Source: an uncultured Candidatus Bathyarchaeia archaeon (GTDB lineage Archaea > Thermoproteota > Bathyarchaeia > 40CM-2-53-6 > JALHTG01). Taken from it: a DNA stretch of 52,749 bases. Positions 13,206 to 41,950 of this stretch are shown piece by piece. How positions within the stretch are numbered: position 1 is the first letter of the stretch; every line of letters begins with the position of its first letter. The notes under the pieces were generated by a model. That model did not search any database. It had not been told where the DNA came from and saw only the letters and a list, made by a program, of their open reading frames with translations. Both the position numbers and the translations under genes were made by a program. The DNA is taken from the NCBI GenBank assembly GCA_964416035.1, contig CAYQCQ010000001.1:1-52749 (forward strand). Reading direction: 5' to 3'.

Positions 13206-13222
13206 ATAGCAAACCCCCTGAG

Positions 13223-14335
13223 CTAGAGTAACTGATTCTCAAACACCTTAGGAAGAAACAATTTAGCTTCCTCTCTTTTTCTCTGAATCTCAATGAGAAA
13301 CTTAGCAATTCTATCTGAAACTACTGCCTTGCACTCGCCACATAGAAGATCACCTGAGGTGCACCTGTTGTAGGTACTTTCAAGTAGCTCGTCCTCAAAA
13401 TGGAAAAGAAGGAACTCGTAGACGACACATCTCTCGGGCTGTCCGCCCACTCGCTTCTGCTCCTGAATCGTTTCGCGCCCTCCCGTGAAGGCGTTCTTCA
13501 GCTTTTCTTTCGCGGCTTCGACACTGTCTGTGAGGAAAATTGCGGTCTCAGGCTTGCTGCTCGACATCTTCGTTCCGGGACCCTGGAGACCTGACATCAT
13601 TTTCGTGTAGATGGAGGAGGGCTTTATCATTCCGAAGCGAGGGGCCAGGTCCCTACTTAGCCTCAAATGAATGTCTTGGTCGATTCCAACCGGAACGAGG
13701 ACTGGCTTCACACCTCCCCGCTCAGACAACTGGGGGTGCAAAATGTCTGCAGCGTCAATGAAGGGGAAGAAAATCTTGCCCATGTTGTCTGAGCTGTTGA
13801 ACCCGTACATGGCATGCATTTGACTGAGTGTAATCTTAGACGCAGCTTTAAACGAAAAGTTCCGAACCAGCTCGTTTCTCCATTGGCTGTAGAGACAGCA
13901 CCTGTCCTTATTCACTAGATCAACACCAAGTGCGAGATAGTTGAGGATGTATTCGTTGACAGTTATTTCCTTGCACATCTCCGCGTCGATTCCTCTTATG
14001 ACATGTGCCTCTATGTCTGATACTGGAATGTAGAGCATGACGCCCTGTCCTTGATACCAAGCCATGAGGTCGGCGATCAGTTTGTGACCGAAGTGAAACC
14101 CTCCTGATGGATCCATTCCGGTCAGTACCACGAACTGCTCCCCGCTCTCTTGTGCATCAAGTATCCGGTCGAAGTCCCTATGGGCGAAGACGACTTCTCT
14201 CGTGAACAATCTGTGAGGGTTCTTTAGTCGTTTCAAGAGCTTTGTCGTCATGGGTTGTAGTCCAAACTCTTGGATGATTCGGGTATAGTCGACATGTTCC
14301 AGCTCAAACTCCCAAGGTGTAATTCCCTTTGACAT
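13223..14335 (-). CDS. trpS: tryptophanyl-tRNA synthetase (archaeal/eukaryotic type)
   Basis: - It shows the class I signatures GMDPSGGFHFGH (HIGH-like) and KMSSSKP (KMSKS).
- The N-terminus, ITPWEFE..VDYTRIIQEFG, is typical of archaeal TrpRS. Confidence 0.9.
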   Translation of the reverse strand: MSKGITPWEFELEHVDYTRIIQEFGLQPMTTKLLKRLKNPHRLFTREVVFAHRDFDRILDAQESGEQFVVLTGMDPSGGFHFGHKLIADLMAWYQGQGVMLYIPVSDIEAHVIRGIDAEMCKEITVNEYILNYLALGVDLVNKDRCCLYSQWRNELVRNFSFKAASKITLSQMHAMYGFNSSDNMGKIFFPFIDAADILHPQLSERGGVKPVLVPVGIDQDIHLRLSRDLAPRFGMIKPSSIYTKMMSGLQGPGTKMSSSKPETAIFLTDSVEAAKEKLKNAFTGGRETIQEQKRVGGQPERCVVYEFLLFHFEDELLESTYNRCTSGDLLCGECKAVVSDRIAKFLIEIQRKREEAKLFLPKVFENQLL

Positions 14336-27504: not shown

Positions 27505-28551
27505 TCAGTGACACTTGAGGGAGCCCAAGATCGCTCTAAGATCGCCTATTTGGCCTTTTTCCGCCTTCTCTCCTCTTAGAGGTCCGGTTTTCATACTGAA
27601 TACAAGGGTTCTTCGAGTCTTGTTGCACCACAACCCGTAGCACTCAACTATTCCGTTCTGCCCCGCTGGATCATGCCATTCGCAGATTGAAGCGCGTGCC
27701 TGATGGCCCCTAATCTTCAAGTTCTCCCTTTTCTCCACCTCTCTCAGGGCCGTATCCTGAGGGAGCATCAATGCTTGTCGCATATCTTCCCTGTCGAAGT
27801 GAGCGGAAATAGTGTGCCTGAGACTTGCAGGCGATGTCTCAGTGGTTTCAAAGGATATTGCAACGAATCCTCCTCCAGCTGATTCTTTTCTTGAGATTCC
27901 AAGTATACCTGAGCCCTCTCCACAACGCGTGGCCTCTTCTCGTAGCGAAAACCCAGGCAATAGGTCGACGCGGAAACGAAACTTGCTCGATATCAGTTTT
28001 CCGTCCTCTTTCGCCTTCTTCTCTTCCTCGTCTCTGATCTTCATCTGTTCCTCAATCTTCTGCAGTAGCTTCTCTACGTTCTGTCGCTTGTCAAAGAATT
28101 TGATGTAGTTTACACCTAGGTCTCCGAATACCGCAAGGAATGGCCCGACAAAGACCATTGCCAGTTGGCTTCCGACATAAGACATAGGTTTAATCGACTC
28201 TAGGAACATGATCGCCACCGTTTCCAATCTCCTCTTAATGACTTCCGAAGCAATTCGATCCATCATCCGTGCTTCCTCTTCAGCCGTAAGCTCTCTTGCA
28301 AATGACTCCACAATGGCTCGCCTTGTAGATACGTACGGAGAAACAACACGACCATAAAAGGTTTCGTCAACTCTTTTCGACGCGGGAAAATATGTTCGCA
28401 ACAGGATGAGAGGTGGGCTGTTGATGAAAGCTATCGCTATTATGAGCCTCGACAAGGAGATCGTTGGGTCATCTGAAGCCGAGACAAATCCCACACGGGT
28501 CCCACAAGAGAAATCATATGACTGGCAAATATCTTTATTGCTGGGCGACAT
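27505..28551 (-). CDS. hypothetical membrane-associated protein, divergent from the ChlI-like gene
   Basis: - A 348-aa ORF with hydrophobic segments (LIIAIAFINSPPLILL, SYVGSQLAMVFVGPFLAVFG).
- It also has a charged coiled segment and a Cys-containing C-terminal domain.
- The start is uncertain, because only 19 bp separate it from the chlI-like start. Met96 at 28266 is an alternative. Confidence 0.5.
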   Translation of the reverse strand: MSPSNKDICQSYDFSCGTRVGFVSASDDPTISLSRLIIAIAFINSPPLILLRTYFPASKRVDETFYGRVVSPYVSTRRAIVESFARELTAEEEARMMDRIASEVIKRRLETVAIMFLESIKPMSYVGSQLAMVFVGPFLAVFGDLGVNYIKFFDKRQNVEKLLQKIEEQMKIRDEEEKKAKEDGKLISSKFRFRVDLLPGFSLREEATRCGEGSGILGISRKESAGGGFVAISFETTETSPASLRHTISAHFDREDMRQALMLPQDTALREVEKRENLKIRGHQARASICEWHDPAGQNGIVECYGLWCNKTRRTLVFSMKTGPLRGEKAEKGQIGDLRAILGSLKCH

Positions 28552-28570: not shown

Positions 28571-29611
28571 ATGGGCTACGAACCGCTTGTCTATCCCTTC
28601 ACTGCAATTGTTGACCAGAATGAGCTTAAGCTAGCATTGGTGCTGAACGCAATAAATCCACAGATTGGTGGCGTGTTGATAAGAGGGCAGAAAGGTACGG
28701 GGAAGAGTCTGGCTGTTAGGGCTCTAGCCGATGTCCTGCCGGAGATAGAGACGGTGGAAGGCTGTCCTTTCAACTGCAGCCCCGTGGATCCCACAAACAT
28801 GTGTGAGAGTTGTCTTCGCTTATATGCTGAGAAGAAGATTCGTGTCAATAGGAAGAAGATGAAAGTTGCTACGTTACCGGTTGGTTCAACTGAGGATCGA
28901 GTTGTTGGAAGCCTTGACATAGAGAAAGCAATAAAGGACGGAGTAAGAGCCCTTCAGCCCGGGATTCTCGCAGGAGCGAACCAGAACATTTTGTACGCTG
29001 ATGAGGTAAATCTTCTTCCAGATCATATTGTAGACTGCATCTTGGACGCGGCGGCTTCCGGGTGGAACTATGTTGAACGTGAAGGAGTCAGTGTGTCGCA
29101 TCCGTCTCGCTTCATCCTCATCGGAACCATGAATCCAGAGGAAGGTGAGCTTCGCCCACAGCTTCTGGATAGATTCCCGATTCATGTCACCGTCGAAGGG
29201 ATATTTGATGAGTCGTTGCGCGTTGAGATAATGACTCGAAATCTAGAGTTTGCCGAGGACACGGAGAGATTCGTGGAGAATTTTGAGGCGGACCAGCAGG
29301 CTTTGAGGGAGAAGATAGTCCGAGCCAAAGAGGTAATCAAGAAAGTGGTCTTCCCTTCTGGCTTGCTTAGAGCAATAGCCAGAGCCTGCATCACCCTAAG
29401 TGCTGATGGGCATAGGCCTGACATATCAACAATGAGGTCGGCGAAGACCCTAGTAGCCTTTGAAGGAAGAAACGAGGTCTTATCCGATGATGTTCTCAGA
29501 GTAGCGGTTATGGGGTTAGGTCATAGAACGAGAAGAGGCGGCCTTGAGGAACCGGCCCCCAGAGAGAAGATATTGGAAGCATTCACTGAGGCAATCAAGC
29601 AGGCAGCATAG
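28571..29611 (+). CDS. ChlI/BchI-like AAA+ ATPase (Mg-chelatase I-subunit family)
   Basis: - The N-terminus is [39 protein letters not shown].
- It has [17 protein letters not shown], Walker [10 protein letters not shown], and [15 protein letters not shown].
- It carries a C-x3-C-x8-C-x2-C insert at 28763-28813. Confidence 0.9.
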
Positions 29612-29613
29612 GA

Positions 29614-32175
29614 ATGCAGTCGCATAGCACATGGTCAAGAACTGACCGATCTTTTCCATTCTCAGCGATCGTGGGGCAGGATAAGACGAAGCTGGCGCTG
29701 ATCGTGAGCATAGTAGACCCTGAGATTGGAGGTGTCCTTCTTACCGGGCCGAAGGGAGCAGGAAAATCGCTGATGGCAAATGGCTTGGAAAGGGTTCTAC
29801 CTGAGATCGATGTTGTGGAAGGTTGCCGGTACAATTGCTCTCCAAAAGATCGAGCAAATGTGTGTCAAGAGTGTAGATCCAGACTTCAAAGAGGCGAGGA
29901 GCTGCCGTCAAAGAAGAAGAGAATGCGTATTATTCGCCTCCCGATTGGTGCAACTGAGGACAGAGTCCTTGGCGGAGTGGACCTTGAGAAAGCGGTCGCC
30001 CTTGGATTTATGGTCCTGCAGCCTGGGCTCCTTGCTGAGGCAAACCGGAACATCTTGTACGTTGATCAGATCAATCTTCTTTCCGAACATCTTGTTGACT
30101 CCTTGCTGGACGCGGCCGCGTCTGGTTGGACGCGAGTCGAGAGAGAAGGGCTGTCAACAAGCCATCCATCCCGATTCATATTGATTGGTTCCATGAATCT
30201 AGAAGAGGGAGAGCTGAGACCGCAGATAATGGATCGGTTCTCGCTCCAGGCGTCTGTCTTCTCAGAAGAGAACCTTGAGCTGAGGACGGACATTCTCAAA
30301 CGGAATATGGACTTTGATCAAGATCCTTCATCCGTCATAGAGTTGTACAAGAAAGAAGATGAGCGGCTTACAGAAGCGTTGGTTGAAGCAAGAGACCGGT
30401 TGCGGTCTGTTAAGATTCCTGAGGAGGTAAGCAAGGCCGTGGCTAGGATCTGTAGTGAGCTGAGGGTTGATGGTCATAGACCTGACATCGTTACTTTGAG
30501 GACTGCAAGAGCCATTGCGGCATACGCGGGCAGACTTGAAGTCAGCATGGAGGACATCATGTTGGCGGCCGAGCTTTCCCTAGTGCACAGGTCACGAGGC
30601 TTTGGAACATTGGGCCCACCATCGATGGAGGAGATCCGGGCTTCCCTGCAAAAGGCACTTGTCAAGGAGGCTCAGAGAGCCGTTATTCCTTCGAAGCCGA
30701 AGGTTCAAGGCGAGGTCAGGACACGACTACGGGTTCCTCAGATGGCTCTGAGGCCCGTAAGAAAACTCTCTCAGCGAGAAGTCTTGATAAAACTGATACT
30801 TGCCGTCGCTCTTCCTTTCCTGCATTTTGTGTTGGCGGTAACACTTGTTGCGTTTTTCCTCCTTTCTATACAAGGTTTCCTAGGAGTACCGTTTTCGCGA
30901 GCTATCGACACTTACTGGGTTCACTATTGGATCGCTGTTATTGGAATTTTTCTCTTCCTGATGGTGTTCCTCTATCGACGAAGGGAGACGTTGTACGTTG
31001 CTGACTTGCAGGCTCAGCAGCTTTCAAGGCTTCTTGTTGACAAACAGATCATAGCCGACGAACTATTTCCAGGTATGACATTTGATTTCTTGGAAGGAAC
31101 GCCTCCAACGTACACGATCGTGCCGCTTGAGGTTGAGGTGAAATTGCCTAAGATCGTTGCTTTCCTTGAAAAAGGGTCGAAGACCCTTTCTCACATTTTC
31201 AAGCCGTCCAGAGAGAGCTTCATCAAGAGGGAATTTGTTCCTGTGTTGGAGAGGAGAGTCCGTCCACTTAGACGATACGTTGTGGGGAAGCACTCGAAGG
31301 CTGAGACGAGAGGTCAAGTTGGAAGGTACGTCTCCTATGAGATGCCCCGAAGGGGCCATAAGGATATCGCTTTCGGACCGACAATCCGCGCTGCGGCAAT
31401 CCACTCAGAGCCGATGTGGAAGGGACGTCTCCGCGTACGGATAAGGTCCTCGGACTTGAGGGTCAAGATAAGAGAGCATAAGGTGCCTTTGTCGATTCTC
31501 TTGGTCCTCGACATGAGCGAGTCAATGATCTCGTCCCTTGACAATGTTGGCAAAGCTATCCTGAGTCTGCATAGGACTGCTTCAAGGAAACGAGACAGGG
31601 TTGGTCTGGTAGTCTTCAAGGGAAGTGAAGCAGTTCTTTTGCAGCATCCAACAAGAAACCTTCGACAGGTTGTGAAGAAACTTCTTGATCTGGGTGCGAG
31701 TGACTTCACTCCTCTTGCTGCTGGAATGACGAAAGCGCTTCAAGTCTTGAGGGTTGAGACGACTAGGAATAGAGACTCCATAGCACTCATAGTTATCATC
31801 ACTGATGGAATCGTGAATGTGCCTCTTTCGCAGCCTTTGAGCCTCTCAACTCGGAAGGATTTCACGAACTCAGCTCAGGCTGATGTTGTCGATGTGGCCA
31901 GACTGATCGCCAAGGAAGGGATCAGGACACTGATCATAAACACTGATCACCGGGAGGAACTCTTACCAAAAGATCTGCCTAGCAAGCGAAAGTGTTTGTC
32001 CCCTTCAGGGCTATTGATAGAGGTGGCTAAGATAACTAAAGGTAGGTACTACGGACTTGCCACGGAAGGGGCACAAGGTTCTCCTCAGCTCCGGCGTGAA
32101 GAAGAAGCGGTAACTCTGGCGAGGCCCTTAGTCCAGTATTTGGCCAGGGGCTCTACTAGTGCATTGTACCGTTGA
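29614..32175 (+). CDS. ChlD/BchD-like protein: AAA+ domain, hydrophobic (TM) linker and a C-terminal vWA domain
   Basis: - It starts 2 nt after the chlI-like stop.
- The N-terminal domain is paralogous to the upstream gene, with an intact Walker A (GPKGAGKS).
- The linker has strongly hydrophobic stretches at 30781-30975.
- The vWA domain has MIDAS residues DMSES (31510-31524), then ..T.. and ITDG. Confidence 0.85.
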   Translation: MQSHSTWSRTDRSFPFSAIVGQDKTKLALIVSIVDPEIGGVLLTGPKGAGKSLMANGLERVLPEIDVVEGCRYNCSPKDRANVCQECRSRLQRGEELPSKKKRMRIIRLPIGATEDRVLGGVDLEKAVALGFMVLQPGLLAEANRNILYVDQINLLSEHLVDSLLDAAASGWTRVEREGLSTSHPSRFILIGSMNLEEGELRPQIMDRFSLQASVFSEENLELRTDILKRNMDFDQDPSSVIELYKKEDERLTEALVEARDRLRSVKIPEEVSKAVARICSELRVDGHRPDIVTLRTARAIAAYAGRLEVSMEDIMLAAELSLVHRSRGFGTLGPPSMEEIRASLQKALVKEAQRAVIPSKPKVQGEVRTRLRVPQMALRPVRKLSQREVLIKLILAVALPFLHFVLAVTLVAFFLLSIQGFLGVPFSRAIDTYWVHYWIAVIGIFLFLMVFLYRRRETLYVADLQAQQLSRLLVDKQIIADELFPGMTFDFLEGTPPTYTIVPLEVEVKLPKIVAFLEKGSKTLSHIFKPSRESFIKREFVPVLERRVRPLRRYVVGKHSKAETRGQVGRYVSYEMPRRGHKDIAFGPTIRAAAIHSEPMWKGRLRVRIRSSDLRVKIREHKVPLSILLVLDMSESMISSLDNVGKAILSLHRTASRKRDRVGLVVFKGSEAVLLQHPTRNLRQVVKKLLDLGASDFTPLAAGMTKALQVLRVETTRNRDSIALIVIITDGIVNVPLSQPLSLSTRKDFTNSAQADVVDVARLIAKEGIRTLIINTDHREELLPKDLPSKRKCLSPSGLLIEVAKITKGRYYGLATEGAQGSPQLRREEEAVTLARPLVQYLARGSTSALYR

Positions 32176-32182: not shown

Positions 32183-32569
32183 TCAACAGGGCTTTCCTGT
32201 TGTGAACTTTCTAAGATATGCTCCAAGAATGGCTGTCAGACAGAACAATGCCAGAATCCATAAGGCATACTGAAGAGTTGTTCCTGTAAGTATTATAGAG
32301 CTGAAGGCAAAGTTCACTAGGAAAGCTGATAGAGCAGTCTTCAAACCTGTACGGAGATAGTCGCCGTTTCCTCTTCTGACGACCAGGTATCCGGCGACTA
32401 TACCTCCGAGCGCCACTGCAAAAATTGACACTATTTCCAACTCCAGGGGTAAAACTTCTTCAGGTAACAATGCCTTCACTGCGTACGTGAAGAACAGAAT
32501 AGGTGCATTTGCGAGAAATCCTCCGGCGAGGTATTCGTCGAAACCCGGCCCTTTCTTCTCCAACGTCAT
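32183..32569 (-). CDS. small four-TM membrane protein
   Basis: A 128-aa ORF with four hydrophobic segments and no recognisable family. Confidence 0.55.
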   Translation of the reverse strand: MTLEKKGPGFDEYLAGGFLANAPILFFTYAVKALLPEEVLPLELEIVSIFAVALGGIVAGYLVVRRGNGDYLRTGLKTALSAFLVNFAFSSIILTGTTLQYALWILALFCLTAILGAYLRKFTTGKPC

Positions 32570-32656: not shown

Positions 32657-33367
32657 CTAGGCTTTTTTCGCGCCCTTGCTTCGTTCCATGAGGACCGCAG
32701 CTGCGAGGATCAGTATTGCCACTGGTATCAGGTACCATGCCACGCCTGTGGGATAATCTAGTAGGAATTGCATTCTGCCGATCAGCAATGACATTCTCGC
32801 CATGACTGTGAAGCCGAACGCTGCTCCGAAAGCAATCATCATTGTCCATCGGCCGACATGAGAGGCGTACAGCAACGCGCCCTTCTGTTCTCTGGTGAAG
32901 ATAAAGAAGAGCAATGTTCCTATGACGCCGATTGCAATCAGGACTGCGTTGATAGGATAGTCTCCCGCATACCAAGCTGCCTTTGGATTAGTCAATGCAA
33001 TGGTTGAGCGGATTTGGTCGGTGAACTGGCTCCTCATAAGTCCGGCCATAGCGAGCCCTATTCCTGTGCCAACTACGGTTGAGATAGGTATCCTGTAGAC
33101 CCAGAAGTACTTCTTCGAGAAGAAGAAGAAGAATAGCAAACCGACGAGCATCGGTAGAATCCAGTAAGTTTCCCCTTTCGTTACTAGGGGCGTCAACGCT
33201 GTGTCCCAGATGTATTTGCTCGAAATGACGGCTCCGTGTGCGACTGCTAAACCTATGAAGACATGTTCTGCGAGTCTGTACGCTTTGTTCTCCTTGTAGA
33301 AGAAACTGTAGATCATCAACGTAAACGCGGCAGCCATTAAGGTTCCAAGAACCTCAGGTGTTGTCAT
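32657..33367 (-). CDS. polytopic membrane protein (about 7 hydrophobic segments), unknown family
   Basis: A 236-aa ORF whose start lies 2 nt after the upstream stop, making it the fourth gene of a tight operon. Confidence 0.7.
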   Translation of the reverse strand: MTTPEVLGTLMAAAFTLMIYSFFYKENKAYRLAEHVFIGLAVAHGAVISSKYIWDTALTPLVTKGETYWILPMLVGLLFFFFFSKKYFWVYRIPISTVVGTGIGLAMAGLMRSQFTDQIRSTIALTNPKAAWYAGDYPINAVLIAIGVIGTLLFFIFTREQKGALLYASHVGRWTMMIAFGAAFGFTVMARMSLLIGRMQFLLDYPTGVAWYLIPVAILILAAAVLMERSKGAKKA

Positions 33368-33369
33368 GT

Positions 33370-34209
33370 CTACTTCCCCTTCCCATACTTCTTGAGTGCG
33401 AAGCCAATGTTTCCTAGGACTATGAAGACAATGACCAGCAGGTGCGAGAGTGACTGTGCGTCCATCGGAGGTGCCAACGTTCCCTTGTAGCCATAGCGGG
33501 CCAAGAGCACTTCATATTCCGCTGCTCCGGCCAACCCTTCGATTACTCCGCCGATCTGTGTAGGGAAGTAAGGTCTGATTCCAGGCGCACTGACGGCAGT
33601 CACCGCCGTAATTGTAGTCACTTCGTACTGTGCTTGTATCTGCCGTAGCCACTCAGGGACTCCGGGGGTTCCAGATGCGATCGTTATTAGCAACTTGAAA
33701 TCCTTGCCTGCCTTGATGTCTTTCATCATAGGGAGTGCCCCTACGGGGGTTCCATAGTAGTCCTTCGGGCAAGTCGCTTGTACATCTTTGCCTAATGCGC
33801 TCATACCGACCTCTCCGTTTGGAATCCATCCCAAGTTGACAAAGTCGATACCGTATTTGGGATGGTCCTTGGAGGCGCCGAGTACGTCCTTGAAAGCTCT
33901 ATCCATAAATGGAACTCCATCGGCCCAGAAACCAAGTCCGACTATTTTCGCGCCCTTCGCGGACAAGTGAGCAACCGTCGCTTTTGTTGCAGGATACTGC
34001 TCAGGCATTGAGGCAGGCGAATAGTCCATCGAGATAACCACCACATCTCCTGGCTTCACCTTTTCAACTACGTCATAGTATGCTGTCGTCATTGGGCTCA
34101 TCGATATTGGCAGGCCTAGGGGTCTAATCAACGGTAAAGATATCACCAGAAACAGGAGCACGTACATCGCTCTGGGATCAACCTTTTCGAGTTTTCCAAG
34201 AAAGCTCAT
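33370..34209 (-). CDS. bitopic protein with N- and C-terminal TM helices flanking a soluble domain of about 220 aa, unknown family
   Basis: - A 279-aa ORF.
- The N-terminal helix is MYVLLFLVISLPLI.
- The C-terminal helix is LLVIVFIVLGNIGFAL.
- The middle is alpha/beta-like. Confidence 0.7.
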   Translation of the reverse strand: MSFLGKLEKVDPRAMYVLLFLVISLPLIRPLGLPISMSPMTTAYYDVVEKVKPGDVVVISMDYSPASMPEQYPATKATVAHLSAKGAKIVGLGFWADGVPFMDRAFKDVLGASKDHPKYGIDFVNLGWIPNGEVGMSALGKDVQATCPKDYYGTPVGALPMMKDIKAGKDFKLLITIASGTPGVPEWLRQIQAQYEVTTITAVTAVSAPGIRPYFPTQIGGVIEGLAGAAEYEVLLARYGYKGTLAPPMDAQSLSHLLVIVFIVLGNIGFALKKYGKGK

Positions 34210-34221
34210 TTTTCAAGCCTC

Positions 34222-34866
34222 CTAAGCTCCAGGTCCAAGGTATCCGCGTTCTCTACCCAGAAGGACTCTTATGCCCATCGATAGAACCCCTAAGGCCACG
34301 CCTATGAGTATTCCTCGCATTCCAGCCGTGTTTGGAACAGCCATGATCCATGAGATGATAGGCACGAACTCGCTCCAAATAGCTGGTCCGATTGGAGCCC
34401 TTCCTATCATAACGACGACTGCTGATATCAATAGTACTGTCGCCTCAGCTGTTCTTGCTCGAAAGGCCCGGTAGGACGCAGAAGTGATGTAGAACGCTAG
34501 CATCGAGAATATGGTCGAGTCCAAGGGAACGTAGAGATTATCGAACCAGTAAGCGTATGTTGGGTGTGCTGTGAACTTTCCTTCTCCGAGCACCAAGCCG
34601 ACTATCAATAACCCATAGAGTGCTATGAGAAGAGCGAGGCTATTGTGCCATCCTTCCTTGTGCTTGGTGAGTCTTCTCGCATGTATTCTTGTCAATGTCA
34701 CCATGCCAATAACGACTGCGAATGTTGCCGCCACATTGACGAACTTCAGCCAATCAGATACTAGCTGGTTGTAGGATGGGACCTTGATGTAGTAGTCGCC
34801 TATCACTAACATTCCCGCGATGAAGGTGATGACAAGGGGCAAGTTTCTTCGTATTGCTACACTCAT
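34222..34866 (-). CDS. polytopic membrane protein (about 6 hydrophobic segments), unknown family
   Basis: A 214-aa ORF with a 12-nt gap to the next gene. Confidence 0.7.
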   Translation of the reverse strand: MSVAIRRNLPLVITFIAGMLVIGDYYIKVPSYNQLVSDWLKFVNVAATFAVVIGMVTLTRIHARRLTKHKEGWHNSLALLIALYGLLIVGLVLGEGKFTAHPTYAYWFDNLYVPLDSTIFSMLAFYITSASYRAFRARTAEATVLLISAVVVMIGRAPIGPAIWSEFVPIISWIMAVPNTAGMRGILIGVALGVLSMGIRVLLGRERGYLGPGA

Positions 34867-34885
34867 TTTTCATTCCCTCTTTCGA

Positions 34886-35719
34886 TTACCATAGTTTTGC
34901 AAGTAACTTCCACAGATCATTGTTCCCGGCTAGAGATAGCACTATGCCTATTGCCATCATGATAATTGCTATGGCTTTTCCGTAGTCTTGCCCCCATATC
35001 GCACCGATCTGAAGCGGGTCTTTGCTTAAGTAGGCTCCAGCTGCAAGTATTTCCTCTCCTATGAGGCAGTAGTCGCAGGCTGCAACGAAGAATGGGATTT
35101 GGGCGGTGTTAGCGGTTCCTGCCACTTGAATCGCTCCAGCCTGATAGCCTCCCTCTGCGAAAAGCAGAGACTCGGCCCAGAAGCCTCCGATCATTATGTT
35201 GGCCGCTACTTTCTCTCTATGCATTAAACCGACAACGCCTGATGCGTATGCGAATTGAGTGTCTGAAAGGTAGATGATCTTGTCGGGATCAAAGTCATCT
35301 GGCACGCCTGCCTTCACATATGCTTGACGTACTATTTCAGCTGCTAGAGGCTGGACTTGAGGGATTCTGATTGTTGTCCAGAGCGTAGTCTTGTACTTAG
35401 CTGCAAGCTCCGCCACATGTGCGAGTACCGAGAGTCCGGCTAGAGTCTGAGGACCTGTATCCGTGGCCAAACCGGCTATTCCAGGTGAGAAGTGAACGGG
35501 ACGCCCCATCTCTGTTGCTCGGCCTATAGCTTCCTTAATGGCATCCAGACCTGCCATCTTGCGTATAGCTGGTCTTCCGATCCCTTTCATTGTAAGGTAG
35601 AGTGTCACAAGCATTATGGTGGTCATCACGAGCAAGAAGACGAAAGCGCTTTGGCTTGCTGCAGGTATTGGTAGAATTTTTCCTTCCTCCTTTTCATTTT
35701 CCGTTTTTCTTTTGCGCAC
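34886..35719 (-). CDS. membrane protein with terminal TM helices and a Gly/Ala-rich central region, unknown family
   Basis: - A 277-aa ORF and the first gene of the membrane operon.
- It has a GTG start.
- A TATA-like TTTTAAATA (minus) lies at 35779-35771. Confidence 0.65.
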   Translation of the reverse strand: MRKRKTENEKEEGKILPIPAASQSAFVFLLVMTTIMLVTLYLTMKGIGRPAIRKMAGLDAIKEAIGRATEMGRPVHFSPGIAGLATDTGPQTLAGLSVLAHVAELAAKYKTTLWTTIRIPQVQPLAAEIVRQAYVKAGVPDDFDPDKIIYLSDTQFAYASGVVGLMHREKVAANIMIGGFWAESLLFAEGGYQAGAIQVAGTANTAQIPFFVAACDYCLIGEEILAAGAYLSKDPLQIGAIWGQDYGKAIAIIMMAIGIVLSLAGNNDLWKLLAKLW

Positions 35720-35770
35720 TGCTCTTTCCGTATGGGATGGCGTGCGCTTCTTCCCGACTAAGCCTCGGTC

Positions 35771-35779
35771 TATTTAAAA
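35771..35779 (-). promoter_or_regulatory. TATA-box candidate for the four-gene membrane operon
   Basis: TTTTAAATA on the minus strand lies about 52-60 nt upstream of the 35719 start. Confidence 0.35.
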
Positions 35780-35994
35780 CTCTTGCCGTCCAACAGGTGT
35801 CTCTGATCGCTCGGAAAGGCTCACCTTGAACCCCTTTTCATGCTTTAGGGTGGGAAGTATGACCTGAAGTCCTGGTGGGTTCCAAGGCTGAACATTGGCC
35901 TGAGAACGGAAATAACGTAAGGATTCGGATTCTACAAATTCGTGAACTGTGTTCCGAGAAACTCAGACAAGAATGGTGAGAAAGAGACTCAGCC

Positions 35995-37122
35995 TTATTC
36001 CTCTATGATTTCGACGTTGGCTCTCGGAACTATTGCCCTCCGACCGTCTTCTAGCTCTATCTCTACCACTCTAACGTCAGACTCTGTCTCCACCACTTGT
36101 AGCTCAACTGGCAAACTTGCCACACGTCCAATTGCTCCGAAGTATGGATCTCTGATCACTCTGATTGGAGTGCCGGGGGCCATTCCTCCGCTGGTTTCCT
36201 CCTCCTCAACCAGCCCTTTAACCTCAGTGTCCTTCAGGGAAATGACTATCTCTGGTCTGATGACTCCAGCACGAATCTGCGTGGCGCCGTTGATGGACGC
36301 CTCTCTTCCGTCAAACGATTTGAGCAGATTGAAGGTTCTATGGGGCATCTTCATCTTGCCGAATCCTTCAGTGATGATAAGTGTCGTTCCTACTTCCTCA
36401 TGTCCCGTAATCGCAACCCCTATCTCGTAGCCTAGGAACTTGATCAGATCCTCGTCCTCGACACCTCCGACTACTATCCCTTTGACTCCCGTCTTGACGG
36501 CCTTGGCAAGCGCTTCACCTGTGACAAGTGAGCCACCCACAAGGACCTTTCCCTCACATGAAGAATCAATCTTTTCAGGGGTGAGAACCTCATCTGGAGT
36601 ACTTGCAACCATCTTTAGGTTCGCATGGGCTTCTCCACCTACTCCGAAGATACCTTGCACGAGAGCAGCGGGTGTGCGAATCGTCACGCCTCCCTTGGGC
36701 ATCACATGAACGACCTTTCCAGGGATGTACGCCGTTATCTCGACGGGAACGTAAGGTTCTCTCAAGGCAATCTGACCCGTGACTTCAGAGATCAATTCAA
36801 TCGTTCCATCTGACGGCGCGTACACGAAAGACTTGAAAAGGCCGAAGAAAGAGCTGCGTTTCGCGATGAGCTCATTCTTTGTAACTTGCCCCTTCAGCTT
36901 TTTCAGCATGAACGGGCCTATTTCTTCCGGATCCACTCCAAGTGCGTTTGCCACGTTTATCAAGTGGATCTCTCCCGGAACCTGTGTCCTCGCTACGACT
37001 TGGTCGTGCGTTACGGTGTCTCCTTCCTTTACGAGGACCTCCCCTGGTATCGGTAGCCTTCGTGTCTTGCTCACTATCGTGAACCTTTTGACTTTGAGTC
37101 CAGGCGTGTACGCATGTGCCAT
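35995..37122 (-). CDS. cytoplasmic protein with split barrel-sandwich (lipoyl/HlyD-like) motifs, a Gly-rich alpha/beta core and a small C-terminal beta-domain
   Basis: - I prefer ATG 37122 (MAHAYTPGLKV), which lies 1 nt after the upstream TAG (TAGCATG), over the track start at 37164.
- LPIPGEVLVKEGDTVTHDQVVAR and YAPSDGTIELISEVTGQIAL are hybrid-motif halves.
- The Gly-rich core includes VLVGGSLVTGEALAKAVKTGVKGIVVGGV. Confidence 0.7.
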   Translation of the reverse strand: MAHAYTPGLKVKRFTIVSKTRRLPIPGEVLVKEGDTVTHDQVVARTQVPGEIHLINVANALGVDPEEIGPFMLKKLKGQVTKNELIAKRSSFFGLFKSFVYAPSDGTIELISEVTGQIALREPYVPVEITAYIPGKVVHVMPKGGVTIRTPAALVQGIFGVGGEAHANLKMVASTPDEVLTPEKIDSSCEGKVLVGGSLVTGEALAKAVKTGVKGIVVGGVEDEDLIKFLGYEIGVAITGHEEVGTTLIITEGFGKMKMPHRTFNLLKSFDGREASINGATQIRAGVIRPEIVISLKDTEVKGLVEEEETSGGMAPGTPIRVIRDPYFGAIGRVASLPVELQVVETESDVRVVEIELEDGRRAIVPRANVEIIEE

Positions 37123-37123
37123 G

Positions 37124-39031
37124 CTAGCTTCCCCCTTTGACTTCTGGTGACCGAATCCGCTCATAGACGGTTTCAGGGTACGCGTTCATTGCTTGGAACC
37201 ACTCGAGCAATCTCTGTCTTCTTGCTGCTGGATCCTCGGGAATTGAGAGAGGCCTGCCTCTGCAGTCAAAGATCAAGCCGACAACGCCGCCTTCCACTGT
37301 CGTTTCTAGGCCATGGCCCGGTCCTCTTCCCACATCCAAATCCTTCGCGGGTGAGAGAACCAGTTTGGCGGTCTTGCCTGATTCGAGTGGAACCACCTTT
37401 ATCGAACCAAAGGCCACATTCTCCTCCACCACGTGGCCCTCAGCTTCAACCTTGAAGCTCAGAGCGTTTCCCTCTTCCTTAAGTACGCCTCTCGGCGCTA
37501 TGCAGGTTCCCAGCCTCACTAGGCAGTCTTTCTCGAAGATCTCGAGAGCTGCTTGCGGGTGGACGGTCGATAGGACACCGAGATGCGGCATCATAAACAC
37601 ACTATCTTGAGCCAGCCTCGTCAGCCCTTCCGGCTGGAACCCATCTATCAAGAGAAGCGCTGACTGTGCCCGTCTCGGTGCGTGAGAAAGCAACCCTCCG
37701 GTTCCTGCCAAGAAGTCTACGTGCATCATGTCAATATACGTCTCCACCCCAGTTGATTGCTCAAAGATCTCTCCCATGGTTCTTACTCTCTGGATGCCCC
37801 TCAAGCCTCTGGCCAGCTGCTTGTGATGCTGGAAACCCAATCTAAGAGCCTCGCGAGCGACGGCATGTTCTACCATGAGCTCCTCCAAGGTCTGCGGAAT
37901 AGTTGTCGGCCTAATCATCTTGTTTCTCAGCCTGTTGCGGACAAGAACAGGTTCGATGTCAAATGGAATCCATCGCATGATGTTGTCGATCGTAGCCTCC
38001 TTCATGACATTGCAGATGCTATAACTCATCCCCAAGTTGGCGCTGACAGTCCTTACGAACTTTCCATCGTATATTGAGTATACATTCGTGGTCGCTCCGC
38101 CTAAGCCGACCCCGATGACGTTAACTCTCCTCAACTCTGCCAAGGTTCTAAACATTCGGCCTTCCCCTGCAGGAGTCGGCATGATCGGAACGTCTGTCCA
38201 TTTCATCAGCTTGTCATAGCCTGGTGCATGAGACATGACGTGCTCCATGAAAAGCTCATGAATCGCGTCGCGGGCGGGTTCTGTGTTCTCAAGCTCAAGC
38301 ATTGGTCTGATATTGTCTACTATTCTGACAGCAAACTTGTCTCCCAGAGTTTTCGAGACAGCTGTCCTTGCGTCCTTGTTTCCTGCGTAGACGATTGGTA
38401 GCTCATAGCCTATCCCAAGCCGTGCCCTCGGCTCGGCCGCAGCTATCAGCTCGGTGATCTCCGCGACATGGGTAATTGTGCCGCCGTCCGTTCCTCCGGC
38501 AAGTAGGATCATGTCCGGCCTGAGTGTTCTTATTATCTCAATTTTCTGGTGGGGCATCCTTCCGTCATCAACTGCGATTACGTCCATTACGATGGCTCCG
38601 GCGCCGAGGGCGGCTCGCTCAGCGCTTTCCGCAGTCATTGTCTTCACGACTCCGGCAACCATCATCTGGAGACCACCACCCGCACTACTAGTTGTGGCAT
38701 AGAGATCGACACCGTTTCCGTTCGCCCTGCGCGGCCACACGATGCCTTCTTCTTCAAGCAAACGCAGTCCTGTAAGCTCTTCCACTTCTCGAACCGCGTT
38801 TCTGACACCTCTCGTCACGTCTTCGAATGGAGCCTCAACGGTTGTTGGAGCTTCTCCGCTGGAAACAAATCTGTACTCGTTGCTTTTCTTCCTGAAGAGA
38901 CGCGCCTTGGTGGTGGTGCTGCCTACGTCCGTCACCAGCATTATCTCAAATTCTTCCGGCTTCTTTGTTTGGCGCTGGCTCGTAGTTCCTCGCCTCTCTC
39001 TAAACTTGGCTAGACGGATTACCTTGCTCAT
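37124..39031 (-). CDS. GlmL/MutL-like ASKHA (actin-fold) ATPase
   Basis: - MLVTDVGSTTTKARLF is the phosphate-1 motif of the glutamate-mutase-L-like family.
- Later Gly-rich motifs are TTSSAGGGLQMMV, LLAGGTDGG, GVGLGGATTNVYS and LAGTGGLLSH.
- The true start may be Met31 at 38941. Confidence 0.8.
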   Translation of the reverse strand: MSKVIRLAKFRERRGTTSQRQTKKPEEFEIMLVTDVGSTTTKARLFRKKSNEYRFVSSGEAPTTVEAPFEDVTRGVRNAVREVEELTGLRLLEEEGIVWPRRANGNGVDLYATTSSAGGGLQMMVAGVVKTMTAESAERAALGAGAIVMDVIAVDDGRMPHQKIEIIRTLRPDMILLAGGTDGGTITHVAEITELIAAAEPRARLGIGYELPIVYAGNKDARTAVSKTLGDKFAVRIVDNIRPMLELENTEPARDAIHELFMEHVMSHAPGYDKLMKWTDVPIMPTPAGEGRMFRTLAELRRVNVIGVGLGGATTNVYSIYDGKFVRTVSANLGMSYSICNVMKEATIDNIMRWIPFDIEPVLVRNRLRNKMIRPTTIPQTLEELMVEHAVAREALRLGFQHHKQLARGLRGIQRVRTMGEIFEQSTGVETYIDMMHVDFLAGTGGLLSHAPRRAQSALLLIDGFQPEGLTRLAQDSVFMMPHLGVLSTVHPQAALEIFEKDCLVRLGTCIAPRGVLKEEGNALSFKVEAEGHVVEENVAFGSIKVVPLESGKTAKLVLSPAKDLDVGRGPGHGLETTVEGGVVGLIFDCRGRPLSIPEDPAARRQRLLEWFQAMNAYPETVYERIRSPEVKGGS

Positions 39032-39177: not shown

Positions 39178-40569
39178 TTGTCAACGAGAATTGCAGAGAA
39201 GGCGGTCGCGCTCTGCGAAAGGCTCGGAGCCGATTATGCCGACGCAAGAGTTGAACGAACATATTCCACGGACATTAGGCTCATGAAAGACACGTTTGAC
39301 CAAGTAGCCTCCGGAGCCGACCAAGGGCTGGGAATCAGAGTTCTCTACAAGGGAGCATGGGGATTCGGCTCCTCGACTTCACTGGAGCTAAGAAACGTTT
39401 CACAAACCATTCGTGAGGCTTTCAAGGCCGCAAAGGCCACTGCCTCGCGCACCCAAATGAAAGCTCGTCTAGCAGAGGTCTCCCCGGTCAAGGATGTTGT
39501 GACAGCTACTGTGAAGGAGCCAATGCGGTCGGTACCAATAGACAGGAAGATGAAGCTAACCTTGGAGACTTCAGAGGAGGCTACGAAGGTTGACAAGCGA
39601 ATTGCGAGTGTAACAGTGACTTACAGTGATTCCAGCGGAGAGGCCTACTTGGCGACGAGTGAAGGAACACGCTTGATTGGAAGGCCGAGTCGAGGAAGCA
39701 TCGTCATTGTGGCAGTCGCAAGAGAGGGAACAAAAGTGGGGACTATTCGAGAGAGGAACGGAATGCAAGCTGGATTCGAACTGTTCGAGAAGATAGATCC
39801 ACTGGGATTGGCGAGAAGAGCCGCTGAGAGGGCAGTCAAGCTGCTTGAGGCGGTTCCAGCTCCAAGCGGAAGATTCACCGTGATAGCTGACCAGAAACTC
39901 GCCGGGGTGTTTGCGCATGAGGCTGTAGGTCATGCCTCCGAAGCGGATCACGTGATAACCGGGGAATCTGTGCTCAAAGACAAGATTGGTCAAAGAGTGG
40001 GATCTGACCTAGTTACGATGTATGACGATTCTACGTATCCTCAAGGGTGGGGCTCCTCCATTTATGATTCAGAGGGGGTGCCTACGAAGAAACGTCTCAT
40101 CATAGACAAAGGGTTCTTGAGGGGATACATTCTGAACAGGGAGACCGCTGCCGAGTTGAATATGGATCCCAACGGAGGGGCTAGGGCTCAATCCTTCGCC
40201 TATCGGCCAGTGGTCAGAATGAGCAACACTTACCTGACAGTGGGTACTCAGAGCTTTGAGGAGCTCCTTGAAGAGGTAGACCACGGGGTCTACTTGAAGG
40301 GATCCCGCGGAGGACAGGTCGATACAGCCAAGGGAACCTTCCAGTTCAGCGCTGAGGAAGGACACTTGATTGAGAAGGGCCAGTTGACCAAACCGTTAAG
40401 CGATGTCTCGCTTTCAGGAATGACCTTGGAGACACTTATGAATATCGACGGCGTGGCTGACGACTTCCAGATGACCATTGGGCTATGTGGCAAGGCGGGA
40501 CAGGTCGTCACGACTGGAACTGGAAGTCCTCACATAAGAATCAGGAACGCCGTCGTAGGAGGGAAATAG
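39178..40569 (+). CDS. tldD: TldD-family metalloprotease
   Basis: - HEAVGHASEADHV is the TldD HExxxH site.
- It has the GxC motif region near the C-terminus (GLCGKAGQ).
- It has a TTG start. Confidence 0.9.
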   Translation: MSTRIAEKAVALCERLGADYADARVERTYSTDIRLMKDTFDQVASGADQGLGIRVLYKGAWGFGSSTSLELRNVSQTIREAFKAAKATASRTQMKARLAEVSPVKDVVTATVKEPMRSVPIDRKMKLTLETSEEATKVDKRIASVTVTYSDSSGEAYLATSEGTRLIGRPSRGSIVIVAVAREGTKVGTIRERNGMQAGFELFEKIDPLGLARRAAERAVKLLEAVPAPSGRFTVIADQKLAGVFAHEAVGHASEADHVITGESVLKDKIGQRVGSDLVTMYDDSTYPQGWGSSIYDSEGVPTKKRLIIDKGFLRGYILNRETAAELNMDPNGGARAQSFAYRPVVRMSNTYLTVGTQSFEELLEEVDHGVYLKGSRGGQVDTAKGTFQFSAEEGHLIEKGQLTKPLSDVSLSGMTLETLMNIDGVADDFQMTIGLCGKAGQVVTTGTGSPHIRIRNAVVGGK

Positions 40570-40570
40570 C

Positions 40571-41950
40571 GTGAACGAAACTTTGGAGTATGCGCTTAGA
40601 AGATGCATCAAACTAGGTGCTACTCAAGCAGAAGTGTTCGCGATCGACGAGGTTGGCACAAACATCGTGATCGAGAAGAAGCAGGTAAAGATTGGCCAAG
40701 TGAAGCGTGATCGCGGCATGGGCATAAGGGTCTTGGTCAAGAAAGATGGTGGAGCCTCAACAGGATTCAGCTATGTGACAGACTTCTCTAGGAGTACTGT
40801 GATGGAGGCGGTGGAGAAGGCGGTCACAACAGCCAAGGTGAAGCGCGCTGATAAAGATCTCAGGTCCTTTCAGGAAAAGGCTAGAACTCGAAAGGTCGCA
40901 AACATATTTGACAAAAGGATTCCCCGGACCGATCCGTCTGACCTGATCGAGGTTGGAAGGTCGATGTTAGAGCAAGCGTGCGAGGATTCGAGAGTATCTA
41001 CAGTCAGCGGCAGTGTGCATGCGGGCTTCGGAGAAACCTCCGTCGCCAACTCACTAGGGGTCTCAGGCAGCTACAGGTCGACTGGGTTCGGCGGCCATAT
41101 GTATGTGGTGGCTGAATCTGGGGGATCCGTAGGCGTTGGCTGGGAAAGCCACTCTTCAAGCCACTACGAGGGCAGGAAACTAGTCGCAGCGGCAGGCTAC
41201 GCCGCCGAGACAGCGATAAAGCAGCTGAATCCGAGGCCCCTCGAACCGGGAATCTATGACGTTGTTGTTGATCAGGACGGATTGGCAGACCTCTTCATGA
41301 ACACTCTTGTTCAGCAGATTAGAGCGGACTTGGTTCAGAGGAACCAATCCCCGCTTACAGGAAAGATTGGATCTGAAGTGGCTTCGGAGAATGTCACCTT
41401 GATGGACGATCCGAGTGTTCCGAGAGCGCTTGGCTCAAAACCTTTCGACTCTGAAGGATGCCCGACCAATCCTAGGCCGATAGTAGAGAAAGGTGTCCTC
41501 CGAACTTTCTTGCACAACTCGTATACAGCCAACAAAGAAGGCGTTGAGAATACAGGTAACTCCATGAGATACATCATGTTCGGAACGAGATCGGAGTACG
41601 CCCTCGAACCAAGCATAGGTCCACACAATCTAGTTCTGAAACCGGGCAAGGGAAGGAGAGAAGATCTGATCCGAGAGGTCAAGAACGGAATCCTGGTCAG
41701 AGGATTCATCGGAGCCCATACTTCAAACGTTCAGAGCGGCGACTTTTCTCTTGCGCTAGACTGCATCTTCAGAATAGAGAATGGGGAGTTGACCTTCCCT
41801 GTCAAGCAGGCCATGATAGGGGGAAACATGCCGAGCATCCTGAGGCAGATTCAGCTTGCGGCTGCAAATTCAAAGCAGGTGACGATGGGTCCAGGGATGA
41901 CGTTGATTTCACCGACCATCCTGATAGAGAAGCTCACCGTAGCGGCATGA
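40571..41950 (+). CDS. pmbA: PmbA/TldE-family partner of TldD
   Basis: - It starts 1 nt after the tldD stop.
- It is homologous in architecture but lacks HExxxH, as expected for PmbA. Confidence 0.85.
   Translation: MNETLEYALRRCIKLGATQAEVFAIDEVGTNIVIEKKQVKIGQVKRDRGMGIRVLVKKDGGASTGFSYVTDFSRSTVMEAVEKAVTTAKVKRADKDLRSFQEKARTRKVANIFDKRIPRTDPSDLIEVGRSMLEQACEDSRVSTVSGSVHAGFGETSVANSLGVSGSYRSTGFGGHMYVVAESGGSVGVGWESHSSSHYEGRKLVAAAGYAAETAIKQLNPRPLEPGIYDVVVDQDGLADLFMNTLVQQIRADLVQRNQSPLTGKIGSEVASENVTLMDDPSVPRALGSKPFDSEGCPTNPRPIVEKGVLRTFLHNSYTANKEGVENTGNSMRYIMFGTRSEYALEPSIGPHNLVLKPGKGRREDLIREVKNGILVRGFIGAHTSNVQSGDFSLALDCIFRIENGELTFPVKQAMIGGNMPSILRQIQLAAANSKQVTMGPGMTLISPTILIEKLTVAA

Follow-up and report, generated by a model that had tools for sequence, protein, structure and literature searches.

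The window analysed here, a 52.7-kb contig, contains two adjacent genes encoding a stand-alone ChlI-like AAA+ ATPase (hereafter I) and a larger ChlD-like protein (hereafter D), which are listed below with their main parts and the two flanking open reading frames.

27505-28551: ORF with marginal hydrophobic segments only; probable start at Met81, which gives 268 aa
28571..29611, + strand: I gene, ChlI-like stand-alone AAA+ ATPase, 346 aa (ORF call, profile matches, motifs)
28763..28813, + strand: four-Cys motif in I, the same C-x3-C-x8-C-x2-C as in D
29614..32175, + strand: D gene, ChlD-like, 853 aa (ORF, profiles, alignment, AlphaFold2, fold match)
29644..30678, + strand: AAA+ module of D, aa 11-355 (pLDDT mostly >90; fold match to ChlI/BchI)
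29824..29874, + strand: four-Cys motif C-x3-C-x8-C-x2-C of D, aa 71-87, between Walker A and Walker B
30772..30879, + strand: predicted membrane helix 1 of D, aa 387-422, preceded by the basic flank RPVRKLSQRE (hydrophobicity, AlphaFold2, homologue position)
30895..30969, + strand: predicted membrane helix 2 of D, aa 428-452, followed by YRRRE (hydrophobicity, AlphaFold2, homologues)
30976..31347, + strand: post-membrane tether of D, aa 455-578, basic, low-confidence/disordered and fast-evolving (pLDDT <50)
31321..31413, + strand: pre-vWA 'AAPxQ' region of D (PF26791), GRYVSYEMP...PTIRAAAIHSEP (precomputed Pfam assignment, alignments)
31471..32073, + strand: vWA (integrin-I-like) domain of D, aa 620-820 (profile, alignment, AlphaFold2)
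32183-32569: ORF, clear polytopic membrane protein

The TAG stop codon of I ends at 29611 and is followed by 'GA' and by the ATG of D at 29614, which bears out the 2-nt gap reported in the first-pass annotation. Its statement that the flanks encode membrane proteins holds for the ORF at 32183-32569, whereas the ORF at 27505-28551 is not clearly a membrane protein.

By its motif set, I is a complete ChlI-type ATPase, with (i) a Walker A motif, GQKGTGKS (aa 39-46), (ii) a Walker B motif, ILYADEVN (aa 140-147), and (iii) sensor 1, the Arg-finger region LRPQLLDRF, and sensor 2, DGHRPDI. Pfam Mg_chelatase and AAA_lid_2 match I, and TIGR02030 (BchI-ChlI) scores 426.4 bits against it, under the curated equivalog cut-off of 466.95. 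The top-scoring model for both proteins is TIGR02442, at 467 bits for I and 564 bits for D. Moreover, I shares 60-64% identity with the AAA+ module in fused, soluble ChlID-like proteins, but only 48% with its partner D.

D comprises, in order, a ChlI-like AAA+ module, a basic linker, a predicted two-helix membrane hairpin, a long disordered basic tether, the AAPxQ region, and a vWA domain with a MIDAS. It thus has the ChlD/BchD layout, with an N-terminal AAA+-like module and a C-terminal vWA domain; the fused ChlID architecture (TIGR02442) is also present, though the score (563.9 bits) lies below the cut-off of 779.45 and the match is divided in two stretches by the insert. TIGR02031 (BchD-ChlD) likewise scores below its cut-off (332.1 against 499.55 bits), and Pfam AAA_lid_2, Mg_chelatase, and VWA_2 also match. 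The AAA+ module matches ChlI structures by sequence (8osf, E 3e-95), with 41-44% identity to ChlI/BchI structures and a target-normalised TM-score of 0.85-0.92 in fold comparison. Its Walker A motif, GPKGAGKS (aa 45-52), is intact, whereas in its Walker B motif, ILYVDQIN (aa 147-154, nt 30052-30075), the catalytic Glu is replaced by Gln, a change common to the whole close lineage; the earlier view that both modules keep their Walker motifs therefore stands for both motifs of I and for Walker A of D, but not for Walker B of D, which reads Asp-Gln rather than Asp-Glu. The four cysteines C71, C75, C84, and C87 are invariant in the aligned homologues (set A1), and the motif is present in 82 of 84 relatives with the membrane insert (TM-type) and in 33 of 36 non-TM relatives, while being absent from both cyanobacterial ChlI sequences that were checked. 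The vWA domain matches the BchD vWA structure 2x31 (E 3.5e-10), and its MIDAS, composed of DMSES (aa 633-637, nt 31510-31524), T699, and D731, is intact as first described: an alignment of 42 sequences shows no variation at D633, S635, S637, T699, or D731.

The linker of D is basic (K+R 15%, D+E 9%, P 6.5%), being neither acidic nor Pro-rich, and includes a hydrophobic stretch of ∼64 residues (aa 391-454, nt 30784-30975), conserved in homologues and in agreement with the ∼65 strongly hydrophobic residues noted before. The Kyte-Doolittle 19-residue maximum is 2.61, with two segments at 388-428 and 433-456, and the AlphaFold2 model places helices 387-422 and 428-452 as a hairpin, with pLDDT means of about 61-81 for the 10-residue blocks over aa 381-430. 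Among 72 two-segment homologues, the mean number of Lys plus Arg is 4.35 for the 15 residues that precede the hairpin and 4.07 for the 15 that follow, as against 1.08 for the 14-residue loop. Judged from the hydrophobicity scale, the positive-inside rule, and the AlphaFold2 model, the hairpin fits a topology of two spans with both ends inside, in which the AAA+ module and, because of the two modelled helices and the Lys/Arg-rich flanks relative to the loop, the vWA/MIDAS domain would be cytoplasmic. The first-pass annotation had allowed two or three spans, of which the helices and the charge pattern retain two, and had raised an extracellular vWA domain, against which the two-helix hairpin and its basic flanks on both sides argue. 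A three-span arrangement that puts the vWA domain outside the cell, for a role in adhesion or surface assembly, is very improbable: while the long first hydrophobic segment (37 residues in this D, against an average of 27) could in principle fold back as two short spans, AlphaFold2 gives a single continuous helix for 387-422, the sequence after the last span is basic and the 120-residue tether is rich in Arg and Lys, D carries no signal peptide, and the vWA domain would be split from the AAA+ ring with which it works in every studied relative. The alignment of homologues contains no invariant residue between R326 and G570 of D, and only 21 matches at E<=0.001 came back when aa 379-620 were searched with phmmer against 1.84 billion representatives. 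Because no hairpin residue is conserved, we infer that the hairpins serve as anchors rather than as a channel, which is further supported by a linker sequence scarcely detectable outside close relatives.

Of the best 120 homologues, about 80 carry the hydrophobic insert at the same position, down to ∼38% identity, and so do all complete D ORFs in an independently retrieved set of 79 metagenome loci; it is therefore far beyond chance. In a neighbour-joining tree, 82 of 84 TM-bearing proteins fall in a single clade, which answers the question raised earlier of whether such ChlD homologues group together, and those with taxon names belong to Bathyarchaeota or Methanomethylicota. TM-type D proteins have 780-870 aa, whereas soluble fused ChlID members have 610-720 aa and linkers of ∼95 residues. 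These comparisons support the predicted membrane tether as a conserved, clade-defining feature of this D lineage.

Examination of what TM-type D genes co-occur with, as the first-pass annotation had proposed, identified I as the only conserved neighbour: it adjoins D in seven of the eight lineages with enough flanking sequence, and every other gene recurs in at most four of the eight. The I-D pair is thus a conserved unit, usually translationally coupled. Further, wherever D has lost the Walker B Glu (DQ, DN, ED, DD, or DG), an adjacent I is present (24 of 24 judged loci), whereas solo D genes keep DE (6 of 6); the one-sided Fisher test gives p = 0.014 for loci that are related, with phylogeny not corrected for. 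Since its Walker B reads DQ, the AAA+ module of D in the close lineage could bind ATP but has probably lost hydrolysis.

No CobN-family gene was found in the 52.7-kb contig, whether the scanned ORFs of >=150 aa were compared with Pfam or six CobN proteins served as tblastn queries, in line with the earlier remark that no ChlH/CobN-like gene lies nearby. Likewise, none of 86 TM-type loci (872 kb, 10 kb or less from the genes) contained a CobN/ChlH homologue, while 14 of 40 loci of soluble relatives have CobN at a distance of at most 10 kb. A gene-neighbourhood link of the TM-type pair to CobN/ChlH is therefore absent. Bathyarchaeial CobN has as its partner a soluble ChlID of 650-690 aa whose linker is acidic and whose MIDAS reads DASGS, and the CobN gene belongs to a transporter operon alongside FecCD and Peripla_BP_2. 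In general, linkage between the I/D and H genes of chelatases is often lacking, and the cyanobacterial chlI loci that we fetched had no large-subunit gene nearby either. Of the first-pass proposal of a membrane-tethered AAA+/vWA machine repurposed for something other than tetrapyrrole metal insertion, the membrane-tethered D of the ChlI/ChlD family is retained; repurposing is plausible, and we put it no higher because the window spans a whole contig of just 52.7 kb and CobN is common in Bathyarchaeia.

Like ChlI/ChlD (BchI/BchD), the pair consists of a small AAA+ ATPase and a larger AAA+/vWA-MIDAS subunit encoded by two genes, and in both systems catalytic residues of D tend to be lost where an I accompanies it. 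It differs from ChlI/ChlD by (i) a two-helix hairpin and long basic tether in place of an acidic, Pro-rich linker, (ii) a MIDAS of DMSES instead of DxSGS, (iii) the four-Cys motif in its AAA+ modules, and (iv) sub-cut-off TIGR02030/TIGR02031 scores, and it lacks both a neighbouring ChlH gene and any chlorophyll context. With the fused ChlID 'putative cobaltochelatase' (TIGR02442), the partner of CobN in non-phototrophs and archaea, it shares the four-Cys motif and a large-subunit AAA+ module that is fully ChlI-like; the fused protein is however soluble and sometimes near CobN, whereas the TM-type protein is predicted to be membrane-anchored. CobS/CobT of the aerobic cobaltochelatase, as described in a preprint (bioRxiv 10.64898/2026.07.21.739949), also combine an AAA+ motor with a vWA adaptor that links it to the large subunit, but they are soluble and work with CobN; the family and solved-structure matches of I and D include no CobS/CobT and all point to ChlI/BchI and BchD. 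In the MoxR-class pairs NorQ/NorD, CoxD/CoxE, RavA/ViaA, and BatA/BatB, an ATPase ring and a MIDAS adaptor remodel a specific client, often for metal insertion, which is a probable functional likeness; several of these pairs act on or at the membrane (PMC9976466, PMC3471820, PMC5700661). Here, too, a vWA/MIDAS adaptor is encoded with the ATPase, a resemblance of mechanism only: AAA_3 and bpMoxR reach 18.5 of the 27 bits required and the best matches are ChlI, so the AAA+ is ChlI-type rather than MoxR-type, and, unlike in the MoxR class, an ATPase-like module and the vWA domain share one chain with a membrane hairpin between them. FtsH holds its AAA+ ring at the cytoplasmic membrane face by two transmembrane helices per subunit. 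This parallel is an analogy only, as the FtsH helices are N-terminal, the ring is fused to a protease, and the sequence relation is limited to the AAA+ domain.

As the best reading we propose, with moderate confidence, a membrane-tethered, client-remodelling motor of the ChlID family. By analogy with ChlID, I would form the ATP-hydrolysing ring and D would co-assemble with it through its own AAA+ module, the oligomeric state and the I-D contact being carried over from the canonical enzyme. The hairpins would pin this assembly to the inner membrane face, and the vWA domain, on its long, flexible, basic tether, could use its MIDAS to capture an acidic residue on a client protein embedded in the membrane or located at it; hydrolysis in I would then be relayed through D to remodel the client. 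The likely outcome, by analogy with ChlID-ChlH, NorQ/NorD, and CoxD, would be a site opened for metal or cofactor insertion. [quoted passage not shown] More tentatively, the pair may be the first ChlI/ChlD-family motor with a client other than CobN/ChlH, namely a protein or complex in the membrane of anaerobic TACK archaea, for instance to load a metal centre.

The pair could instead drive tetrapyrrole metal chelation or de-chelation in trans, with the CobN-family subunit supplied by a distant gene of the same genome and the hairpin just localising cobalt/nickel insertion or metal removal beside metal/tetrapyrrole transporters. The retained AAPxQ region and vWA/MIDAS domain, which are large-subunit-binding features of ChlD, would suit such a role, as would the abundance of CobN in Bathyarchaeia and its presence in Verstraetearchaeota, the transporter operon that houses Bathyarchaeial CobN, the separation of I/D from H in many organisms, including the fetched cyanobacterial loci, and the membrane association of canonical ChlH-ChlD in vivo reported in PMC6604950. 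We nevertheless consider it rather unlikely, given the lack of CobN at the 86 TM-type loci, the adjacent soluble ChlID that Bathyarchaeial CobN already has where seen, the sub-equivalog scores of both I and D, and the observation that most Bathyarchaeota MAGs with chlI/chlD are without cobalamin genes (PMC7110647). A non-CobN client is favoured as somewhat more likely than a CobN client.

It is less probable still that the motor serves one of its recurrent neighbours, either a six-gene DUF6754/GlmL-like ATPase membrane cluster or the TldD/PmbA metalloprotease pair. The six genes lie directly downstream of the I-D pair, and in L104-L106 I is co-oriented with the DUF6754 cluster; parts of the cluster occur within 8 kb in two to three of eight lineages and TldD/PmbA in three of eight, some of these lineages having a D with no more than 38-46% identity to the one described here, and a TldD/PmbA client would give an FtsH-like split into membrane AAA+ motor and protease. 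Both sets are missing from most lineages, however, the intact six-gene cluster occurs in Bacillota with no ChlI/ChlD gene nearby, and no ChlI-type AAA+ protein is known to thread substrates to proteases. That the pair is an NTPase-vWA type of conflict or anti-virus system is hardly credible: the bpMoxR domain of MoxR-vWA-beta-propeller ternary systems matches only below threshold, PADLOC gave no meaningful match, and the pair, vertically conserved over a class-level clade, sits in a stable neighbourhood of housekeeping genes with no effector, beta-propeller, or mobile-element neighbours.

Public records annotate such genes as 'magnesium chelatase' or 'Mg-chelatase subunit ChlI/ChlD', and the presence of chlI/chlD in Bathyarchaeota has been taken as a possible sign of chlorophyll synthesis (PMC7110647). 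That the family described here is predicted to be membrane-anchored and is not linked to CobN argues against a chlorophyll reading of such genes. The role of ChlI/ChlD without a large subunit has been described as unexplored (Kuznetsov et al., PMC9227772), and the TM-type pair is a concrete, widespread case of that problem. Should the pair act on a membrane complex, chelatase-type AAA+ motors would have a wider reach, and the way in which uncultured Bathyarchaeia and Methanomethylicia assemble cofactors would become more accessible. Were the client indeed outside the CobN/ChlH family, the 'chelatase motor' would be a general MIDAS-guided remodelling engine, older than, or escaped from, tetrapyrrole metabolism.

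The two genes of the pair, here called I and D, lie on the same strand, and the 2-nt gap between them reported in the first-pass annotation is borne out by the bases GA, which follow the TAG stop codon of I. The features concerned are the following:

28571-29611, + strand: I, ChlI-like AAA+ protein of 346 aa
28763-28813, within I: four-Cys motif, C-x3-C-x8-C-x2-C, between Walker A and Walker B
29614-32175, + strand: D, ChlD-like AAA+/vWA protein of 853 aa
29824-29874, within D: the same four-Cys motif, likewise between Walker A and Walker B
30052-30075, within D: Walker B, ILYVDQIN
30784-30975, within D: hydrophobic stretch of the linker, aa 391-454, in two segments
32657-39031, - strand: six-gene cluster downstream of D
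39178-41950, + strand: TldD/PmbA metalloprotease pair, after the cluster and 7 kb from D

Against NCBIfam, I scored 467 bits with TIGR02442 and 426 bits with TIGR02030 (BchI-ChlI), and D scored 564 bits with TIGR02442, 367 with TIGR02030, and 332 with TIGR02031 (BchD-ChlD), all of which lie under the curated cut-offs; the Pfam matches in D were AAA_lid_2, Mg_chelatase, and VWA_2. Furthermore, sequence comparison with solved structures aligns the N-terminal 330 residues of D with ChlI (8osf, E 3e-95) and its C-terminal domain with the vWA domain of BchD (2x31, E 3.5e-10). The pair is a member at the superfamily level and is not of the MoxR type; of ChlI, ChlD, and TIGR02442, it lacks at least one defining feature each, in addition to falling short of their cut-offs. 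The I protein shares 60-64% identity with soluble fused ChlID-like proteins in their AAA+ module, against 48% with its partner D. The four-Cys motif, a possible zinc or Fe-S site, is invariant in the membrane-type clade and occurs in most ChlID relatives from non-phototrophs, whereas the two cyanobacterial ChlI sequences that we checked have DPFNS...DP..M at this position.

The hydrophobic stretch that had been noticed in the D linker is real, with a 19-residue Kyte-Doolittle maximum of 2.61. Among the top 120 homologues, at 38-82% identity, approximately 80 carry an insert at the same position, after about residue 350, the lower-ranked matches being mostly soluble. Moreover, metagenome contigs were scanned with a sub-alignment restricted to the clade's vWA region, which was needed for clade specificity; this retrieved 79 loci (these and the other locus counts comprise loci of shared ancestry, which are not phylogenetically independent), and every complete D ORF among them had the insert. 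When the full-length alignment was used instead, generic AAA+ motifs dominated the scan, and most of what it retrieved was cyanobacterial chlI and soluble ChlID, kept as controls only; an 860-aa ORF at another fetched locus (L019), initially taken for an AAA+ protein with transmembrane segments, was rejected as a coiled-coil protein. As to whether membrane-type homologues form a clade, a question raised in the first-pass annotation, a simple neighbor-joining distance tree of 134 proteins (630 well-occupied columns; soluble archaeal and bacterial forms included) placed 82 of the 84 insert-bearing proteins within one clade of 84, with all CobN-linked soluble forms outside it. Named homologues belong to Candidatus Bathyarchaeota/Bathyarchaeia and Methanomethylicota. 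On one contig (L099), two membrane-type I/D pairs stand head to head (3035-6632, - strand; 7206-10864, + strand). Compared with the D of the window over the AAA+ module, identity is 80% for one pair and 48% for the other, so that paralogues of this family occur in a single genome.

In a 42-member alignment, Walker A, C71, C75, C84, C87, R202, R208, and R289 are invariant, as are the MIDAS residues D633, S635, S637, T699, and D731, in agreement with the intact vWA MIDAS described earlier; between R326 and G570, there is no invariant residue. Judged from these alignments, the presence and position of the hairpin are conserved, and its sequence is not. Indeed, a phmmer search with aa 379-620 against 1.84 billion representatives yielded just 21 proteins with E<=0.001, almost exclusively close relatives, from which we conclude that the tether evolves fast; as this search reached almost nothing past close relatives, it was dropped as a means of sizing the clade.

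The first-pass annotation had considered three membrane spans, with the vWA domain extracellular. An AlphaFold2 model of D (42-sequence alignment; mean pLDDT 75) is confident for the AAA+ module (residues 11-355) and for the vWA domain (about 580-820), shows disorder over residues 455-578, and folds the hydrophobic region into exactly two helices, 387-422 and 428-452 (10-residue block means of pLDDT about 61-81). Likewise, 72 of 84 homologues have two hydrophobic segments, which average 27 and 20 residues. Lys and Arg together average 4.35 in the 15 residues before the first segment and 4.07 in the 15 residues after the second, versus 1.08 in the intervening loop (14 residues on average). By the positive-inside rule, these basic flanks indicate a hairpin with both ends inside. 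The predicted helices and the Lys+Arg distribution, which are independent of each other, speak against three spans, and we infer from them that the AAA+ module and the vWA domain are both probably cytoplasmic.

The most constant neighbor of D is an I-type gene, which adjoins it in seven of eight lineages (single-linkage at 65% identity over the vWA region, at least 4 kb of flank required). As a rule it immediately precedes D in the same orientation, the two genes being separated by, or sharing, a few bases; one lineage has it downstream and convergent, and in another, which includes proteins named Methanomethylicota, D stands alone. Any other gene family occurs near D in at most 13 of about 85 loci and in at most four of the eight lineages. 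The earlier statement that both AAA+ modules keep their Walker motifs holds for Walker A of D (GPKGAGKS) and Walker B of I (ILYADEVN), but not for Walker B of D, where Gln replaces the catalytic Glu throughout the window's lineage. Across the family, every judged locus whose D lacks this Glu (DQ, DN, ED, DD, or DG) has an adjacent I (24/24), and solo D genes keep DE in six of six cases (Fisher one-sided p = 0.014, treating related loci as independent). The DN, ED, DD, or DG forms are seen independently in lineages other than the window's. A narrower rule, that a separate I accompanies only DQ, was rejected, since 20 loci with DE also have I. The pattern is as expected if I hydrolyses ATP and D is a nucleotide-binding scaffold, by analogy with canonical chelatases.

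The lack of a ChlH/CobN partner in the window was upheld, with no CobN match either by Pfam on scanned ORFs of at least 150 aa or by tblastn with six CobN proteins. Similarly, tblastn with six Pfam-verified CobN proteins found none in 86 membrane-type loci (872 kb), where ORFs of at least 650 aa considered as CobN turned out to be DNA polymerase DP2, a Rad50/SbcC-like protein, GH116, an XPD-like helicase, a solute-binding protein, and FeoB. Of the 40 loci with soluble D-type genes taken from the genome scan, 14 carry CobN at a distance of up to 10 kb, frequently as the immediate neighbor. CobN is common in Bathyarchaeia, and in both of the Bathyarchaeial examples that we looked at it lies near a short soluble ChlID, namely one of 691 aa (locus L018) and one of 650 aa with an acidic Gln/Pro-rich linker, the MIDAS motif DASGS, and no hydrophobic segment (locus L166). 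The CobN cluster of the latter locus (2480-13762) also encodes an ABC transporter of the FecCD / Peripla_BP_2 / ABC_tran type, an arrangement reminiscent of the loci for HmuS, a CobN-like haem de-chelatase, in Bacteroidota. Linkers of the membrane type average 213 residues and are basic, whereas those of CobN-linked soluble ChlID have about 95 residues and are acidic. Given this pairing and the distinct linkers, these archaea have as their standard chelatase motor a paralogue other than the membrane-type pair. The membrane-type pair may also serve a CobN encoded elsewhere in the genome: linkage was tested within the loci of the I/D genes, and the window itself is one whole contig of 52,749 bp. 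Between the best 120 Bathyarchaeial CobN clusters and the membrane-type D proteins listed, no lengths of the longest contig coincide, which, given two incomplete listings, is not evidence of absence.

Of the flanking ORFs described as encoding membrane proteins, 32183-32569 is clearly polytopic, but 27505-28551 (- strand) has only marginal hydrophobic segments. The latter matches no family and is probably over-extended, with several homologues placing its start at Met81 (268 aa); a 115-aa relative lies inside the DUF6754 cluster of locus L105 (7144-7491). The six-gene cluster, also present at loci L167 (10001-15944) and L105 (4000-10139), encodes three membrane proteins, DUF6754 (PF20539), a 389-aa weakly RnfC_N-like protein, and a 635-aa GlmL-family ASKHA ATPase. 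It is also found intact in Bacillota with no ChlI/ChlD gene beside it, where gene order (in Alkalicella caledoniensis) appears to correspond by ORF sizes and two Pfam hits (DUF6754 and MutL). The DUF6754 proteins of Bacillota and this archaeon are 55-63% identical, which suggests horizontal transfer. TldD/PmbA adjoins membrane-type D directly in two distant lineages (L086, 12603-15340; L103, 1806-4645). Near the I/D pair, parts of the cluster or TldD/PmbA recur in two to three of the eight lineages each, in some cases with a D only 38-46% identical; we regard them as weak leads and not as partners. PADLOC matched no defence system. The archaeal markers of the window are DUF1512, TrmB, archaeal PheRS subunits, a DnaG-type Toprim protein, and two Lhr-type large helicases within 52 kb (2324-5266, + strand; 41988-44858, - strand), the first followed by an SMC_N/Rad50-like ATPase (5337-7322) and a weakly Nse4_C-similar protein (7325-8161).

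To the observed domain order, conserved hairpin, I-D coupling, and absence of CobN linkage at the loci searched, we add a mechanism proposed from the roles of studied relatives. In ChlD, binding of the client ChlH is under the control of the integrin-I domain, whose MIDAS site is essential for catalysis (PMC6604950); a preprint describes CobS and CobN as bridged by CobT (bioRxiv 10.64898/2026.07.21.739949); the MoxR/vWA pair NorQ/NorD inserts metal into a membrane enzyme (PMC9976466); and CoxD, a membrane AAA+ protein, is involved in assembling a metal cluster (PMC3471820). By these precedents, I would form the hydrolysing ring, which D would join through its AAA+ module, giving a membrane-pinned motor whose tethered MIDAS domain would capture a client at the inner membrane face for remodeling by ATP hydrolysis in I. 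That no residue of the hairpin is conserved favors an anchoring role over a pore.

Our full-text literature search found no description of a transmembrane ChlD. In the Bathyarchaeota MAGs in which Pan et al. noted chlI/chlD, cobalamin genes are mostly missing, and those authors proposed chlorophyll synthesis (PMC7110647); Kuznetsov et al. stated that ChlI/ChlD function without the large subunit is unexplored (PMC9227772). The membrane-type pair is widespread in uncultured TACK archaea, where it is currently annotated as Mg chelatase.
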